DNA of 64,000 nt from an uncultured Candidatus Rokubacteria bacterium (GTDB lineage Bacteria; Methylomirabilota; Methylomirabilia; Rokubacteriales; CSP1-6): positions 384,001 to 448,000 of the forward strand of contig CAVVEU010000008.1 of the NCBI GenBank assembly GCA_963747235.1. Direction: 5' to 3'. Below the pieces are notes generated by a model that saw nothing but the letters and a program-made list of their open reading frames with translations, was not told the origin of the DNA and searched no databases. The translations under genes and the position numbers were made by a program. Each line of letters starts with the position of its first letter. The first letter of the stretch is position 1. Below, piece after piece: positions 40,218 to 45,331 of the stretch.

Positions 40218-40369
40218 GATGGTGTACTCCCCTCGGTGAAATATGTGCAGGTTCGGGGCCAGAACCGCCGCGTGACATTTGGCCTACTTGGGGCCACGAG
40301 AGCCGGCCGGCGTGACGGCGAGTGTCGCTCGGCTTGACGAAGCGCCGGTTTGGGCTGATCCTCGGGCGC

Positions 40370-41192
40370 ATGAGCACGATCACCACGAAGGACGGCACCC
40401 AGATCTACTACAAGGACTGGGGCAGCGGGCAGCCCGTCGTCTTCAGCCACGGCTGGCCGCTGAGCGCGGACGCGTGGGAAGACCAGATGCTCTTTCTCGG
40501 CGCCCGCGGCTACCGCTGCATCGCCCACGACCGCCGGGGCCACGGCCGGTCGAGCCAGCCCTGGAACGGCAACGAGATGGACACCTACGCCGACGATCTC
40601 GCGGCGCTGGTCGACGCGCTCGATCTCGAAGAGCGCGATCCACGTCGGCCACTCCACCGGCGGCGGCGAGGTCGCCCGCTACCTCGGCCGCCACGGCACG
40701 AAGCGGGTGGCCAAGGCGGTGCTGATCGGCGCGGTGCCGCCGATCATGCTCAAGACGGCCGCCAACCCGGGCGGCCTGCCGATGGACGCCTTCGACCAGA
40801 TCCGCACCGGCGTCCTCGCCGACCGCGCGCAGTTCTTCAAGGATCTCTCCACGCCGTTCTACGGCGCCAACCGGCCGGGCGCCAAGGTCTCGCAGGGCCT
40901 GCGCGACTCGTTCTGGCTCCAGGGGATGCTGGCCGGCTTCAAGGGCGTCTTCGACTGCATCAAGGCCTTCTCGGAGACGGACTTCACCGAGGACCTCAAG
41001 AAGATCGACGTGCCGACGCTGATCCTGCACGGCGACGACGACCAGATCGTGCCGATCGGCGCCTCGGCGATGCTGTCGTCGAAGCTCGTGAAGGGCGCCA
41101 CGCTGAAGGTCTACCCGGGCCTGCCGCACGGGATGTGCTCGACGCACAAGGTTCAGATCAACGCGGACCTGCTCGCGTTCCTCCAGGCATGA
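40370..41192 (+). CDS. Non-heme chloroperoxidase/arylesterase (alpha/beta hydrolase)
   Basis: [40 protein letters not shown]; frameshift near 40630. Confidence 0.93.
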
Positions 41193-41656
41193 GCGAGCCC
41201 CTCGCGCGGCGCGGGCTGCTGATCGGCGCCGTGACCGTCGCGCTCGCCGCGGCGGGCGCGCGTCTGGCCGGCGCGGCGGCGAAGCCCACGATCACGGTCC
41301 ACAAGTCCCCGACCTGAGGCTGCTGCGCGGCGTGGGTCGGGCACCTGCGCGCAAGTGGTTACGCGGTGAAGACGGAGGACAACGAGGATCTCGCGCCCAT
41401 CAAGCGGAAGCTCGGCGTGCCGCGGGCGCTGCAGAGCTGCCACACCGCGGTGGTCGAGGGGTACGTCGTCGAGGGGCACGTCCCCGCCGATCTGATCGAC
41501 CGCCTGCTGCGCGAGCGGCCCTCCGTGGTCGGCCTCGCGGTGCCGGGCATGCCCATCGGCTCCCCGGGCATGGAGGCGCCCGGGCAGGCCGCCGAGCGCT
41601 ACCAGGTGCTCGCGTTCGATCAGAAGGGCCGCACCACCATCTTCGCCAGCCGCTGA
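41189..41656 (+). CDS. DUF411/CopG-family periplasmic metal-binding protein, probable selenoprotein (Sec at codon 43)
   Basis: Tat-like RRGLL signal; KSPT-TGA-GCC...W; [25 protein letters not shown]. The frame is continuous through TGA 41315-41317. Confidence 0.85.
41318..41353 (+). other. Bacterial SECIS-like hairpin
   Basis: GCGCGG-C-GUG [GGUCGGG] CAC-CUGCGC; loop starts with G after a 17-nt spacing from the UGA and contains GGUC. Confidence 0.65.
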
Positions 41657-41661
41657 CGCCC

Positions 41662-42855
41662 GTGCCTGCGTTCGGCGCGCGCGAGGGTCACGGGCCCCTG
41701 AGTGGCGTCACGGTGCTCGATCTGAGCGGCTACGTGGCCGGTCCCTATGGCTGCACCCTGCTCGGCGATCAGGGCGCCCTCGTCATCAAGGTCGAGCCGC
41801 CCGAGGGCGACAACCTCCGCAACTACCCGTCCACGCTCCCCGGCGAGAGCCGGGCGTTCCTCGGAGTCAATCGCAACAAGCACGGCATCGGCCTCGACCT
41901 CAAGCATCCCGACGGCCTGGGCGTGCTGCGCCGATTGGTCTCCCGCGCCGACGTGCTGGTCCACAACTTCCGGCCGTCGGTGCCCGCGCGGCTCGGCATC
42001 GACTACGACCGGATGCGGGCGGTGAACGAGCGCCTGATCTACTGCGCGCTGACCGGCTACGGCGACCGGGGCCCGCTCAAGGATCGCGCCGGGTACGACC
42101 AGGTGCTCCAGACCATGACCGGCATCGCGGTCGAGCAGGGCAAGCCGGGCGATCCCGCGATCGTGTACGGCTCCGCGGTGGACTTCTACTCGGCCTCGAT
42201 GCTGGCCTTCGCGGTGTCCTCCGCGCTCTTCGAGCGCTCGCGCACCGGGCGCGGCCAGTACGTGAGCGTGTCGCTCCTGCGCAGCGCGCTCACGATGCAG
42301 GCCACCCGGCTGGTGTGGGTGGACGGAGAGCCGCGCGACGTCTGGCGCGACATGCGCTCGGGAGGCATCACCGGGATCCACCCGACGAAGCACGGCAGCC
42401 TCTACATCTCGGCCAACACGCCGCACTTCTGGCAGGCCCTGTGCGAGCTGACCGGGCTGGCCGACCTCGCGAGCGATCCGCGGTTCGACACGGTGCGGAA
42501 GCGGGCGGAGCACGAGGCGGTGCTCGTCCCGCGGCTGCGCGCGGCGCTGCAGGCGCGCACCGCGGTCGAGTGGGAGGCGCACTTCGGCGAGCGCGTGCCC
42601 TGCGCGGCGGCGCGTCCGGTGGAGGACATGTTCGACCATCCGCAGGTGGCCGCGGAGGGCATCCTGGCCAGCTTCGAGCACCCGGGGGTGGGGCACTACC
42701 GCGGCATGGCGCATCCGGTGCGCTTCGGCGATGGCCCACCGCCCGCGCCCTTCGCGGCGCCGCAGCTCGGGCAGCACTCGCGGGAGATCCTGGCGAGCCT
42801 CGGCTACGCCGACGCGGAGATCGAGCGGCTGCGTGGCGCGGGCGCGGTGGTCTGA
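41662..42855 (+). CDS. CaiB/BaiF class III CoA-transferase
   Basis: GPLSGVTVLDLS, VIKVEPPEGD, NRNK, HNFRP, AGYDQVLQ, APQLGQHS. Confidence 0.93.
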   Translation: MPAFGAREGHGPLSGVTVLDLSGYVAGPYGCTLLGDQGALVIKVEPPEGDNLRNYPSTLPGESRAFLGVNRNKHGIGLDLKHPDGLGVLRRLVSRADVLVHNFRPSVPARLGIDYDRMRAVNERLIYCALTGYGDRGPLKDRAGYDQVLQTMTGIAVEQGKPGDPAIVYGSAVDFYSASMLAFAVSSALFERSRTGRGQYVSVSLLRSALTMQATRLVWVDGEPRDVWRDMRSGGITGIHPTKHGSLYISANTPHFWQALCELTGLADLASDPRFDTVRKRAEHEAVLVPRLRAALQARTAVEWEAHFGERVPCAAARPVEDMFDHPQVAAEGILASFEHPGVGHYRGMAHPVRFGDGPPPAPFAAPQLGQHSREILASLGYADAEIERLRGAGAVV

Positions 42856-42857
42856 TC

Positions 42858-43756
42858 GTGGCGGACCTCCTCATGCGCAGCAAGCTCTTCGTGCCCGCCT
42901 CGCGGCCCGAGCTCTTCGCGAAGGCCCTGGCCGGCGCCGCCGACGCGCTCTCGTTCGACCTGGAGGACGCGGTCCAGGAGAGCCGGAAGGCCGACGCGCG
43001 CGGGACGCTGGAAGCCTTCCTGCGCCAGGCCTCCGAGCGCCCGCCGGGCAAGATTCTCATCGTGCGGGTGAACGGGCTGACGACGCCGCACTTCGAGGCC
43101 GACCTGCGGGCGGTGGCGTGGCCGGCGGTGGACATGATCAACCTGCCCGAAGCCCGAGTCCGCGGAGGACGTGCGGGCCGCGGCGGCCGCGCTCGCCCGG
43201 GTGGAGGCGGAGCGGCGGATCGGGCGCCCCATCGGCATTCTCGCGAACATCGAATCGCCGCGGGGGCTGCGGCTGGCCCTCGAGATCGCGACGGCGCACC
43301 CGCGGGTCGTCGGGCTCCAGCTCGGCCTGGGCGATCTCTTCGAGCCCTACGGCATCGACCGGGCCGACGCCCGCGCGGTCCACGCCACGCAGCTCACCGT
43401 GCGCCTCGCCGCGGCCGAGGCGGGCATCTGGGCGTGCGACACGGTCTACGGGACGGTGGCGGATCCCGAGGGCTTCACGCGCGAGGCGGAAGCGCGCGCG
43501 GCGGCTCGGCTTCATCGGCAAGTCCTGCATCCATCCCACCCAGGTCCCGCTCGCCAATGCGGTGTTCCGCCCGAGCGACGCCGAGATCGCCGCGGCCCTC
43601 AGGGTGGTCGAGGCCGCGCGCGGCGCCGAGCGCAACGGGGTCGGGGCCTTCCTGGTGGACGGCCGCATGATCGACATCCCCTTCGTCAAGCGCGCCGAGT
43701 CGATTCTGGGCGCGGCCCGCCGGCTCGGCCTGGTCCCCGCCGACCGCGGGGCCTGA
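42858..43756 (+). CDS. CitE-like CoA-ester lyase (HpcH/HpaI family)
   Basis: RSKLFVPA, FDLEDAV, VRVN, IESPRG, GKSCIHP, GRMID; two indels. Confidence 0.92.
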
Positions 43757-43759
43757 GCC

Positions 43760-45331
43760 TCAGGAGTCGATCCGGCGCTCGTCGAGGTCCAGCTCCCGCT
43801 CGAGCGCCCGCAGCACGTCGTCGTCGATCGCCCCCTCCGCGCGCAGGCGCAGCAGCGCCTCGCGCTCCGAATCGATGACGGTGCGCTGGATCTCGCGATG
43901 CTCGATGATCTCCCGATCTTCCTCGCCGGAGGCGCCCGCGTCGCGCTGCCGCTCGACGTGCTCGGACCGGTGCTCGTAGGTCTCGCGCAGCCGATCGAGC
44001 AGCGGGCGGTGGCCCGGCCAGACCGGGTAGAGCTCGTCGATCCGCCGCGTGGCGGCCTCGACGAGCTGCTGGCGCGCGCGGGCCTCCTCCTCGCGCAGCT
44101 CCGGATCGGTGCCCAGGCGGAGCCGGCGGATGAGCCACGGCAGGCTGAGCCCCTGGCCCAGCAGGGTGACCACGATGACGGTCACGGTCACGATCACGAG
44201 CGTCTCGCGCGCGGGGAACGGCGCGCCGCCGGGCAGGGTCAGCGGCACGGCGAGCGCGATCGCGAGGGAGACGCCGCCGCGCATCCCGGCCCACGACAGC
44301 ACCAGCGAGTGCGCGAGGAAGCGGTGCGGGCGCGACTCGCCGCGCACCGCGCACGCCGCGAGCTCGCTCGGGAAGATCCAGAGCGCGCGGACCACGAGCA
44401 GGACGAGGCTCACGATGAGGCCGATGCCGACGAGCCGGATCGCGGTGGAGGCATCGAGCGAGCGCAGGAGGAACGGGACCTCGAGGCCGGTGATGATGAA
44501 GACCATCCCGTTCAGGAGGAAGGCGATCGTCTCCCACACCGCGCGGCCGGTCAGGCGGGCGTCGGCCCCCATCATGCGCGAGGCGCGGCGGCCGAGGTAG
44601 AGACCCGCGACCACCGCCGCGATCACCCCGGAGGCGCCGAGCTCCTGGGCGGGCAGGAACGCGGCGTAGGGGGTCAGGAGCGAGATCGTGATCTCGACCG
44701 GCGTGTCCTCGATGCGCGCGCGGATCTGCGCGATGATCCAGCCCACCGCGAGGCCGATGGCCAGGCCGCCCAGCATGGCGCCCACGAACGTCTCGACGCC
44801 GACGGACGCCTTGAACGCGCCCCCGACCGCCACCGCGATCGCGATGCTGTAGATCGTGAGCGCGGTGGCGTCGTTCAGGAGGCTCTCACCCTCGAGCACC
44901 GACACGATCCGGCGCGGGACGGCCAGGCGGGAGGCGATGGCGGCCGCCGCGATCGCGTCGGGCGGGGCGACGATCGCGCCGAGCGCGATGGCGACCGCCC
45001 ACGGGATGCTGGGGATCAGGGTGTGCACCACCGCGGCCACCGCGAACGCGCTGACGACGACCAGGCCGACCGCGAGCGAGCCGATGGTGCCCAGATTCGC
45101 GCGCAGGCTGCGCAGCGGGGTGTAGAAGGCCGCGATGTAGAGCAGCGGGGGCAGGATGAAGAGGAAGATGAGATCCGGGTCCACCTCGACGTGCGGGGTG
45201 CCCGGCACGAGGCCCAGCGCGAGCCCGCCGATGACCAGGAAGATCGGGTAGGCGATGCCGAGCCGTCGCGCGATCGTCACGAGCGCGGCGACCGCGATGA
45301 GCAGAGCCAGGACGAGCTGAGCGCTCTGCAT
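43760..45331 (-). CDS. CPA1 Na+/H+ antiporter
   Basis: LPPLLY, APPDAIA, EGESLLNDA, WAGMRGGVSLA. Confidence 0.93.
   Translation of the reverse strand: MQSAQLVLALLIAVAALVTIARRLGIAYPIFLVIGGLALGLVPGTPHVEVDPDLIFLFILPPLLYIAAFYTPLRSLRANLGTIGSLAVGLVVVSAFAVAAVVHTLIPSIPWAVAIALGAIVAPPDAIAAAAIASRLAVPRRIVSVLEGESLLNDATALTIYSIAIAVAVGGAFKASVGVETFVGAMLGGLAIGLAVGWIIAQIRARIEDTPVEITISLLTPYAAFLPAQELGASGVIAAVVAGLYLGRRASRMMGADARLTGRAVWETIAFLLNGMVFIITGLEVPFLLRSLDASTAIRLVGIGLIVSLVLLVVRALWIFPSELAACAVRGESRPHRFLAHSLVLSWAGMRGGVSLAIALAVPLTLPGGAPFPARETLVIVTVTVIVVTLLGQGLSLPWLIRRLRLGTDPELREEEARARQQLVEAATRRIDELYPVWPGHRPLLDRLRETYEHRSEHVERQRDAGASGEEDREIIEHREIQRTVIDSEREALLRLRAEGAIDDDVLRALERELDLDERRIDS

Follow-up and report, generated by a model that had tools for sequence, protein, structure and literature searches.

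A probable selenocysteine form of the copper protein CopG in an uncultured Rokubacteria bacterium

Some genes are split by annotation programs because one of their codons is UGA. The stretch considered here, called the window throughout, comprises 64,000 nucleotides (nt) of contig CAVVEU010000008.1 (forward-strand positions 384,001 to 448,000; assembly GCA_963747235.1) from an uncultured Candidatus Rokubacteria bacterium. It contains a DUF411/CopG-like gene with a UGA codon at the position of a conserved cysteine. A first-pass annotation, made from the DNA letters, proposed that this UGA encodes selenocysteine (Sec, U). Comparative sequence evidence now makes it very probable, by the usual criteria, that this is a real selenoprotein gene; the product is most likely CopG, a periplasmic copper protein, in a Sec form.

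A CopG-like gene with an in-frame UGA

The complete gene occupies 41189..41656 on the plus strand: 155 codons plus a stop codon, if the UGA at 41315-41317 is read as selenocysteine. Its ATG (41189) overlaps the stop codon of an upstream hydrolase gene (ATGA), and a single frame runs from there to the TGA at 41654-41656. The sole internal TGA lies in the context AAG TCC CCG ACC TGA GGC TGC TGC, that is, K-S-P-T-U-G-C-C. Open reading frame (ORF) calling with translation table 11 breaks the gene in two: a 5' part, and then a 96-residue ORF (41366-41656) that starts from GTG 41366. Direct reading of the frame thus agrees with the first-pass annotation, which had joined the two parts despite the split ORF track.

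Family membership is clear. The Pfam DUF411 profile (PF04214) matches residues 81-128 with E 4.5e-28 (97.2 bits; cut-off 27), although no NCBIfam model matches the whole protein. Among solved structures the sole match is 6WIS/6WJE (E 8e-34 over residues 34-153, chain 6wis_A), deposited under the name "DUF411 domain-containing protein"; a review that discusses it names 6WIS as CopG (PMC7558416).

Alignment with 6WIS locates the residues of interest. The proposed selenocysteine codon, U43 (41315..41317, plus strand), falls on the first Cys of N-C-G-C-C, the CxCC copper motif of CopG, just as the first-pass annotation had placed it. The motif here is U-G-C-C: positions three and four are Cys and position one is the UGA. 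It is not literally CxCC, and becomes the equivalent of one only if the UGA is read as Sec, the analogue of Cys. Two further motifs are kept. The S-C-H-T common to CopG (6WIS segment schtgvidgkfveghvpa) includes codons C84-H85, at 41438..41443 on the plus strand, and the conserved methionine motif of CopG, M-P-x-G-S-P-G-M, is present as M121-P-I-G-S-P-G-M128 at 41549..41572, also on the plus strand. Residues C84, H85, M121, and M128 all align with 6WIS. Together with the two database matches, these residues support the assignment to DUF411/CopG.

The TGA recurs in independent data. Public contigs (Logan) from four sequencing runs were aligned to positions 41100-41750. Two contigs, from two different studies, span codon 41315-41317, and both keep the TGA: X2 record 19 covers 41258-41412 with one differing letter (41372), and X3 record 25 covers 41102-41422 with four (41144, 41185, 41216, and 41372). 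These letters account for all of the differences in the two records. The check in sequence data proposed by the first-pass annotation therefore favors the TGA. (Contigs from X16, a rhizosphere metatranscriptome run, cover 41193-41472, TGA included, with 90-95% likeness. Their source is a relative and DNA carry-over may account for them, so they are not counted as evidence of expression.)

The contig does contain errors or lesions of another type. The alpha/beta-hydrolase gene upstream (40322-41192, plus strand) is split over two frames: profile positions 2-76 match in the frame of 40322, and positions 183-234 match in that of 40707. An assembly indel error or a real frameshift is the probable cause. 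Downstream, an HpcH/HpaI (citE-like) aldolase gene (42315-43878, plus strand) is spread over three frames. Profile positions 1-91, positions 101-207, and the C-terminal piece each lie in a separate ORF, which implies two further frameshifts within about 1 kb. The CoA-transferase gene between the hydrolase and HpcH/HpaI genes is intact. The damage thus takes the form of indels, as first suggested.

TGA or cysteine at one codon

If the UGA encodes Sec, homologs should have either TGA or a Cys codon at this position. A six-frame search of 61 genomes (60 relatives plus the window's own) found a DUF411 gene in 33, most matches having one TGA inside. The 31 full loci from relatives divide into 23 with U-G-C-C, TGA being at the identical codon, and eight with C-G-C-C. 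A wider scan examined one genome per species for 185,579 species; its best 80 loci comprise 18 UGCC, 59 CGCC, and three other CxCC motifs. Removal of three duplicates left 108 distinct loci for comparison. In the U43 column, 40 of these have TGA and the other 68 have Cys, more than chance would place at one codon. The flanking sequences K-S-P-T and G-C-C-x-x-W are conserved around the UGA. The recurrent TGA/Cys pairing called for by the first-pass annotation is therefore found: in one column, in many genomes, and in several phyla.

Record titles indicate the breadth of this distribution. The UGCC loci of the wide scan come from Candidatus Rokubacteria/Rokuibacteriota, Candidatus Binatia, a "delta proteobacterium" metagenome-assembled genome (MAG), Gemmatimonadota (six), Vicinamibacterales/Acidobacteriota (two), and Chloroflexota (six). 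Overall, the TGA forms are found in Rokubacteria/Methylomirabilota, Binatia, Gemmatimonadota, Acidobacteriota, and Chloroflexota. A census of the home phylum (251 genomes) found the gene in 65, all from two families of one order. Among its 74 match rows, 71 span residue 43; 58 of these have one TGA and 13 have none, the count for loci first met in the census being of a TGA anywhere within the match. Matches run from about residue 5 to residue 155 with one TGA inside, down to 54-57% identity.

The window's genome itself contains three Sec-type copies. One of the others lies on contig C39 (G000:C39:67325-67771, locus L056), and the third, frameshifted and at a contig end, on C42 (G000:C42:171-513, loci L057/L058). 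Both have TGA at the same codon; the C39 copy is 59% identical. No Cys-type copy is present in the assembled parts of this genome.

Public protein collections include full-length Cys forms at 81-85% identity (P0002-P0009). They also include DUF411 "proteins" of only 103-109 residues: P0048, P0051, P0054, P0060, P0061, P0104, P0105, P0112, P0115-P0117, and P0120, all at 79-91% identity. Four of these (P0048, P0051, P0104, and P0112) start right after U-G-C-C, at a GTG within the hairpin described below or just beyond it. These short entries are truncated calls of Sec-type genes. Where names are given, the public entries are called "DUF411 domain-containing protein" or "hypothetical protein".

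The genome also encodes the means to read UGA as Sec. In this genome, which is 88% complete, all four genes named in the first-pass annotation were found, by profile scores and, for the tRNA, by ARAGORN. Genes selA (578 bits) and selB (365 bits) are adjacent on contig C14, and beside them is tRNA-Sec, the selC product (69.3 bits; ARAGORN tRNA-SeC, anticodon tca). The selD gene (228 bits) is on C27 (G000:C27:46033-46945) and is read in two frames, likely as the result of another indel. A second selD-like stretch lies, in three pieces, on the contig of the window, some 80 kb upstream of it (G000:C8:303114-303868). The split state of the two stretches suggests further indel damage or a broken paralog. 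The same contig carries a gene for FdhA, the formate dehydrogenase alpha subunit, with one in-frame TGA (G000:C8:590703-593795, L139) in the context …H-Q-A-R-V-U-H-S-A-T….

Relatives are similarly equipped. The selA profile scores above cut-off in 54 of 61, showing that Sec use extends throughout the order; for the same reason, selA presence was rejected as a discriminator within the order. In the other phyla it is more informative: selA is present in 16 of 17 TGA-form genomes versus 29 of 50 Cys-form genomes, with ten further Cys-form genomes outside the comparison. Fisher's exact p is 0.0065, a value that overstates the association, since related genomes are not independent.

Bacterial Sec insertion requires a further signal, the selenocysteine insertion sequence (SECIS). 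The candidate here is a hairpin at 41330..41350 (plus strand), within codons A48-W-V-G-H-L-R54, identified through RNAalifold, pairing counts, and synonymous codon bias. Its 8-bp stem pairs 41330-41337 with 41343-41350 around the loop CGGGC (41338-41342). Criteria of the bSECISearch type place the apical loop 16-37 nt after the UGA, with G among its first two bases; here the stem begins 12 nt and the loop CGGGC 20 nt after the UGA.

Conservation of this hairpin was evaluated in two ways. First, RNAalifold, applied to the 23 Sec sequences of relatives, predicts a helix at columns 24-29/35-40. When extended to nine pairs, this helix is formed in 92.8% of cells, and two pairs show a compensatory double change: G-C to C-G, and U-A to C-G, the latter entailing Val-to-Ala and His-to-Arg substitutions. 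Two such pairs were reached in seven of 500 shuffles. Covariation, which the first-pass annotation had proposed to look for, is sparse.

Second, Sec and Cys forms were compared. The hairpin follows partly from the W-V-x-H-L codons, which makes the Cys forms the right control. All six core pairs form in 31 of 34 Sec loci outside the Chloroflexota, in 10 of 68 Cys loci, and in none of the six Chloroflexota Sec loci; the mean minimum free energies of the 21-nt core are −10.0, −3.9, and −1.1 kcal/mol, respectively. Codon choice shows the same bias. Sec forms encode the His by CAC without exception (33 of 33), whereas Cys forms use both CAC (36) and CAT (24), and 33 of 34 Sec forms use CTG or CTA for the Leu. 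Directly after W-V, 25 of 34 Sec forms have Gly, whose GGN codon lies in the loop, versus one of 68 Cys forms. The hairpin is linked to the Sec forms. If the candidate SECIS is indeed written into the helix codons past the active site, the RNA signal would shape the protein, as the Gly after W-V suggests.

The hairpin drawn in the first-pass annotation used a different register, GCGCGG-C-GUG[GGUCGGG]CAC-CUGCGC (41325..41350, plus strand). The letters are present, the structure is possible in the window, and its upper GUG/CAC pairs are invariant. However, its lower stem is not conserved: pairs 19-40, 20-39, and 21-38 form in only 12, nine, and 12 of the 23 sequences, 80.2% of cells are paired overall, 241 of 500 shuffles do as well, and no compensatory change is seen among the 23 sequences. 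This register was rejected in favor of the shifted 8-bp helix, which is conserved.

Taken together, the independent assemblies, the sel genes, and the recurrent TGA/Cys pairing support the original claim that the UGA at the first Cys position of CxCC encodes Sec.

Export, copper, and competing explanations

CopG-like proteins, as described in the review cited above, are periplasmic and have a thioredoxin-like fold; their tetranuclear copper cluster is held by CxCC together with two adjacent methionines (PMC7558416). They help copper resistance under anaerobic conditions, and are proposed to oxidize Cu(I) and to hand copper to other cuproproteins (PMC7558416).

The window's protein probably shares this location. 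Its N-terminal 31 residues (41189..41281, plus strand) read as a signal peptide: an RR motif (A-R-R-G-L-L-I-G), a hydrophobic core, and then A-A-A/K, the predicted cleavage-type site. The solved CopG chain aligns from residue 34 on. The N-terminus M-S-x-x-L-x-R-R is conserved in the genus orthologs, and 22 of the 40 Sec forms have an RR-x-hydrophobic motif, as do 23 of the 68 Cys forms; these include all of the genus orthologs listed. Other family members, Sec forms included, have plain or lipoprotein-like signals that lack the RR motif, and in Chloroflexota members the signal peptide has Cys at a lipobox-like position. Substrates of the Tat (twin-arginine translocation) route typically have an S/T-R-R-x-F-L-K-like sequence ahead of the hydrophobic core; Tat profiles gave one weak match, TIGR02811 (E 0.083; 13.2 bits, where the cut-off is 48.45). 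Sequence comparison thus gives good support for export. The Tat route, which the first-pass annotation had stated outright, is plausible: the conserved motif in the genus speaks for it, but the weak profile match and the many members without RR do not.

These elements suggest a mechanism. The UGA at 41315-41317 would be decoded as selenocysteine by SelB and Sec-tRNA(Sec), directed by the stem-loop that begins 12 nt downstream, inside the W-V-G-H-L-R codons. The full-length 155-residue precursor would then be exported, in this genus by way of a twin-arginine-like signal peptide. The mature protein would carry Sec43 in place of the first CxCC Cys, in the motif that, with two methionines, holds the tetranuclear copper cluster of CopG. 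Sec43 may be a copper ligand, the attacking residue of a U-x-x-C redox site, or both, and its selenolate would thereby take part in periplasmic Cu(I)/Cu(II) handling.

Several observations weigh against this model, some concerning copper and others concerning decoding. With respect to copper, CopG genes are often linked to copA, cusCBA, or cueO/cutO (PMC7558416). The DUF411 gene in the window instead has as neighbors Abhydrolase, CoA_transf_3, HpcH_HpaI, an Na_H_Exchanger antiporter, and a GAF histidine kinase, none of them a copper gene. Likewise, 79 neighboring ORFs at 17 Sec-form loci from other phyla include no copper family among the 25 of 103 Pfam families listed, and no family occurs more than twice among those listed. 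A conserved gene neighborhood was sought by all-against-all clustering of stop-to-stop ORFs and rejected, since the clustering gave within-genus synteny only.

From CopG homology alone, then, we infer a copper role, and the periplasmic selenium-copper protein of the first-pass annotation agrees with the conserved CopG motif residues but gains nothing from its gene neighbors. An alternative is that the protein is a selenoprotein that does not handle copper: a thiol/selenol oxidoreductase, or a periplasmic binder of Hg, Ag, As, or Se. The absence of an adjacent copper gene in the window, and of a recurrent one near the 17 Sec-form loci, fits this idea. Moreover, U-G-C-C also reads as a U-x-x-C redox motif in a thioredoxin-like fold, and many of the metal-related selenoproteins treated in a recent survey concern Hg and As (PMC13188914). 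However, the protein keeps the CxCC position and two Met of the CopG copper cluster, plus S-C-H-T, and matches the CopG structure over residues 34-153. A role without copper is accordingly judged unlikely, although it is an alternative to be taken seriously.

With respect to decoding, the 64-nt stretch that includes the hairpin folds no better than shuffled sequences (z +1.07; in 173 of 200 shuffles the fold is equally or more stable). In such GC-rich DNA, folding energy by itself carries no information, and it was rejected as SECIS evidence. Most of the hairpin pairs are invariant, part of the hairpin is forced by the W-V-x-H-L codons, and the 10 Cys forms noted above also make the six-pair core. 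No SECIS family in Rfam matches; there are only four chance-level hits. The tree of the 108 short proteins is poorly resolved: eight of its 105 inner branches are starred (well supported), and the minimum number of U/C changes is 10 on the full tree but one if only starred branches are forced. This leaves one usable lineage pair, which makes a test of the hairpin-Sec association on independent lineages powerless.

The six Chloroflexota TGA loci (L090, L091, L109, L110, L122, and L132) present a further difficulty. Each has TGA at the same codon, but none forms the hairpin, and RNAalifold offers no convincing consensus alternative (−1.41 kcal/mol). A selA match is present in all six genomes; five are full-length and above cut-off, and the sixth (in G260, the source of L109) is incomplete at a contig end and scores below cut-off.

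Some genomes with TGA forms also seem to lack machinery. One of the 17 from other phyla gave no selA. Among the relatives, G005, G017, and G029 (92, 80, and 95% complete) have no selA or selB above cut-off. All three have selD, however, and in two of them selD itself contains one in-frame TGA and is of the Sec type (G005:C101:15079-16011 and G029:C227:2972-3916). Probably, these incomplete MAGs simply lack the contig that carries selAB-selC.

Might the UGA be recoded, but not (or not always) as Sec? Cys could be placed on tRNA(Sec) at low selenium, or a near-cognate tRNA could read through, making the gene in effect a regulated Cys-type CopG. The inserted residue is predicted from sequence, and the sparse covariation and the Chloroflexota forms without the hairpin leave some room for this idea. 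Against it are the complete Sec pathway, the other TGA-containing selenoprotein genes such as that for FdhA, and the concentration of TGA forms in selA-bearing genomes. Furthermore, a metal-binding or redox Cys in a U-x-x-C arrangement is the usual place for Sec, according to the survey (PMC13188914). Insertion of another residue is thus quite improbable.

Alternatively, the UGA could be an ordinary stop codon in a broken or split gene, the reading adopted by gene callers, which would yield a 42-residue signal-peptide fragment and a C-terminal fragment with its own start. The 96-residue table 11 ORF has this form, as do the public versions from close relatives that begin just past the motif, and the contig certainly contains broken genes. 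Those nearby breaks, however, are frameshifts and not stop substitutions. In 40 distinct loci, with identities as low as about 50%, the TGA occupies the identical codon, and the signal peptide and the K-S-P-T and G-C-C flanks are in frame and conserved on either side. The C-terminal fragment would have neither an export signal nor the CxCC site, and where the callers place the start, the window has GTC, which cannot serve as one. A split gene is very hard to reconcile with these features.

Finally, the codon might normally be TGC or TGT, with the TGA arising by sequencing or assembly error or as a nonsense mutation of one strain. The indels in at least two neighboring genes and the Cys forms at 81-85% identity in the same genus prompt this idea, but it can practically be dismissed, because the TGA is kept in the contigs from two other studies, in 58 of the 71 census matches, and in two more paralogs in the same genome. 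Judged by these comparisons, the TGA is neither a sequencing error nor the mark of a pseudogene, and selenocysteine remains the preferred reading.

A probably undescribed family among known systems

Sec-type CopG appears to be new. Table 1 of a 2026 survey, which covers 119 families and subfamilies of prokaryotic selenoproteins and gives their domain identifiers, contains no PF04214, DUF411, or CopG (PMC13188914). Full-text literature searches, which did not extend to supplementary tables, found nothing that pairs DUF411 with selenoproteins. Searches on CopG with selenocysteine returned nothing relevant by title among the matches listed, and those on DUF411 (whose matches include DUF4110-4119) returned nothing on selenium by title among the matches listed. 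The combination of selenoprotein, copper resistance, thioredoxin-like, and periplasmic yielded nothing related. Table 1 and these searches agree with the first-pass annotation, which did not know DUF411 as an established selenoprotein family. DUF411/CopG is thus probably an undescribed one. The survey also mentions a Methylomirabilota MAG with 63 predicted selenoprotein genes, credited to Deng et al. 2026 (PMC13188914).

The kind of substitution is already known: Sec replaces a redox or metal-binding Cys in a protein of the thioredoxin fold. What is specific here is the possible natural selenium-copper site. The full proposal is of an unlisted selenoprotein family, widespread among soil and groundwater phyla (Rokubacteria/Methylomirabilota, Binatia, Gemmatimonadota, Acidobacteriota, and Chloroflexota), in which a selenolate stands in for a thiolate that bridges or ligates the tetranuclear copper cluster and the SECIS lies within the helix codons past the active site. 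In its entirety this proposal is tentative, a little short of an even prospect. To our knowledge, no natural selenium-copper protein has been described, and this would be the first such site.

If the proposal is true, then copper would join Mo/W and Ni among the metals bound by protein selenium. Within one genus, Sec and Cys forms at 81-85% identity would provide a natural pair for examining the contribution of selenium to copper redox chemistry or to over-oxidation resistance. The gene would also tie together the use of two trace elements, selenium and copper, in uncultured soil bacteria. In addition, because the Sec genes appear in public sets as 103-109-residue stumps or as a "hypothetical protein", inventories of both copper homeostasis and the selenoproteome are incomplete for these abundant soil phyla.

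Comparison with known systems sharpens these points. The closest is Pseudomonas aeruginosa CopG (DUF411, PF04214; PDB 6WIS/6WJE), also an exported protein, which shares the domain, the x-G-C-C, S-C-H-T, and M-P-x-G-S-P-G-M motifs. The two differ in that the first CxCC Cys is encoded by UGA (Sec) here, and in that linkage to copA, cusCBA, or cueO/cutO is seen neither in the window nor at the 17 Sec-form loci.

The thioredoxin-fold selenoproteins of the UxxC type (thioredoxin, glutaredoxin, DsbA-like, and Prx-like, among others; PMC13188914) likewise have Sec in place of the N-terminal Cys of a C-x-x-C-type site, common Cys homologs, and a stem-loop within the ORF just past the UGA. In contrast, the site in this family is C-x-C-C, and in the Cys homolog it holds a metal cluster instead of forming a simple dithiol/disulfide couple.

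Metal-related selenoproteins have been predicted too. The survey includes a cation-transporting ATPase E1-E2 (UxxC), an SO_0444 family Cu/Zn efflux transporter (UxC), a CopZ-family (2Fe-2S)-binding protein, and a mercuric transport protein (PMC13188914). As in the DUF411 family, Sec occupies a soft-metal-binding Cys position, and all come from computation only (PMC13188914), but the fold and family are different. Because a solved Cys homolog has a multinuclear copper cluster at the motif, the selenium-copper bond predicted here is structurally specific.

FdhA, encoded by the same genome, shares the recoding mechanism and shows a similar geometry of its own: a 6-bp hairpin whose stem and loop lie 11 and 17 nt after the UGA, compared with 12 and 20 nt in the DUF411 gene. 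The loops differ (AGCUCUG in fdhA, CGGGC here), as do the protein and the metal. FdhA is a Tat-exported selenoprotein in many bacteria. The metal bound to selenium is Mo/W in formate dehydrogenase, whereas in [NiFeSe] hydrogenase it is Ni (PMC13188914); in Sec-type CopG, the corresponding partner would be copper.

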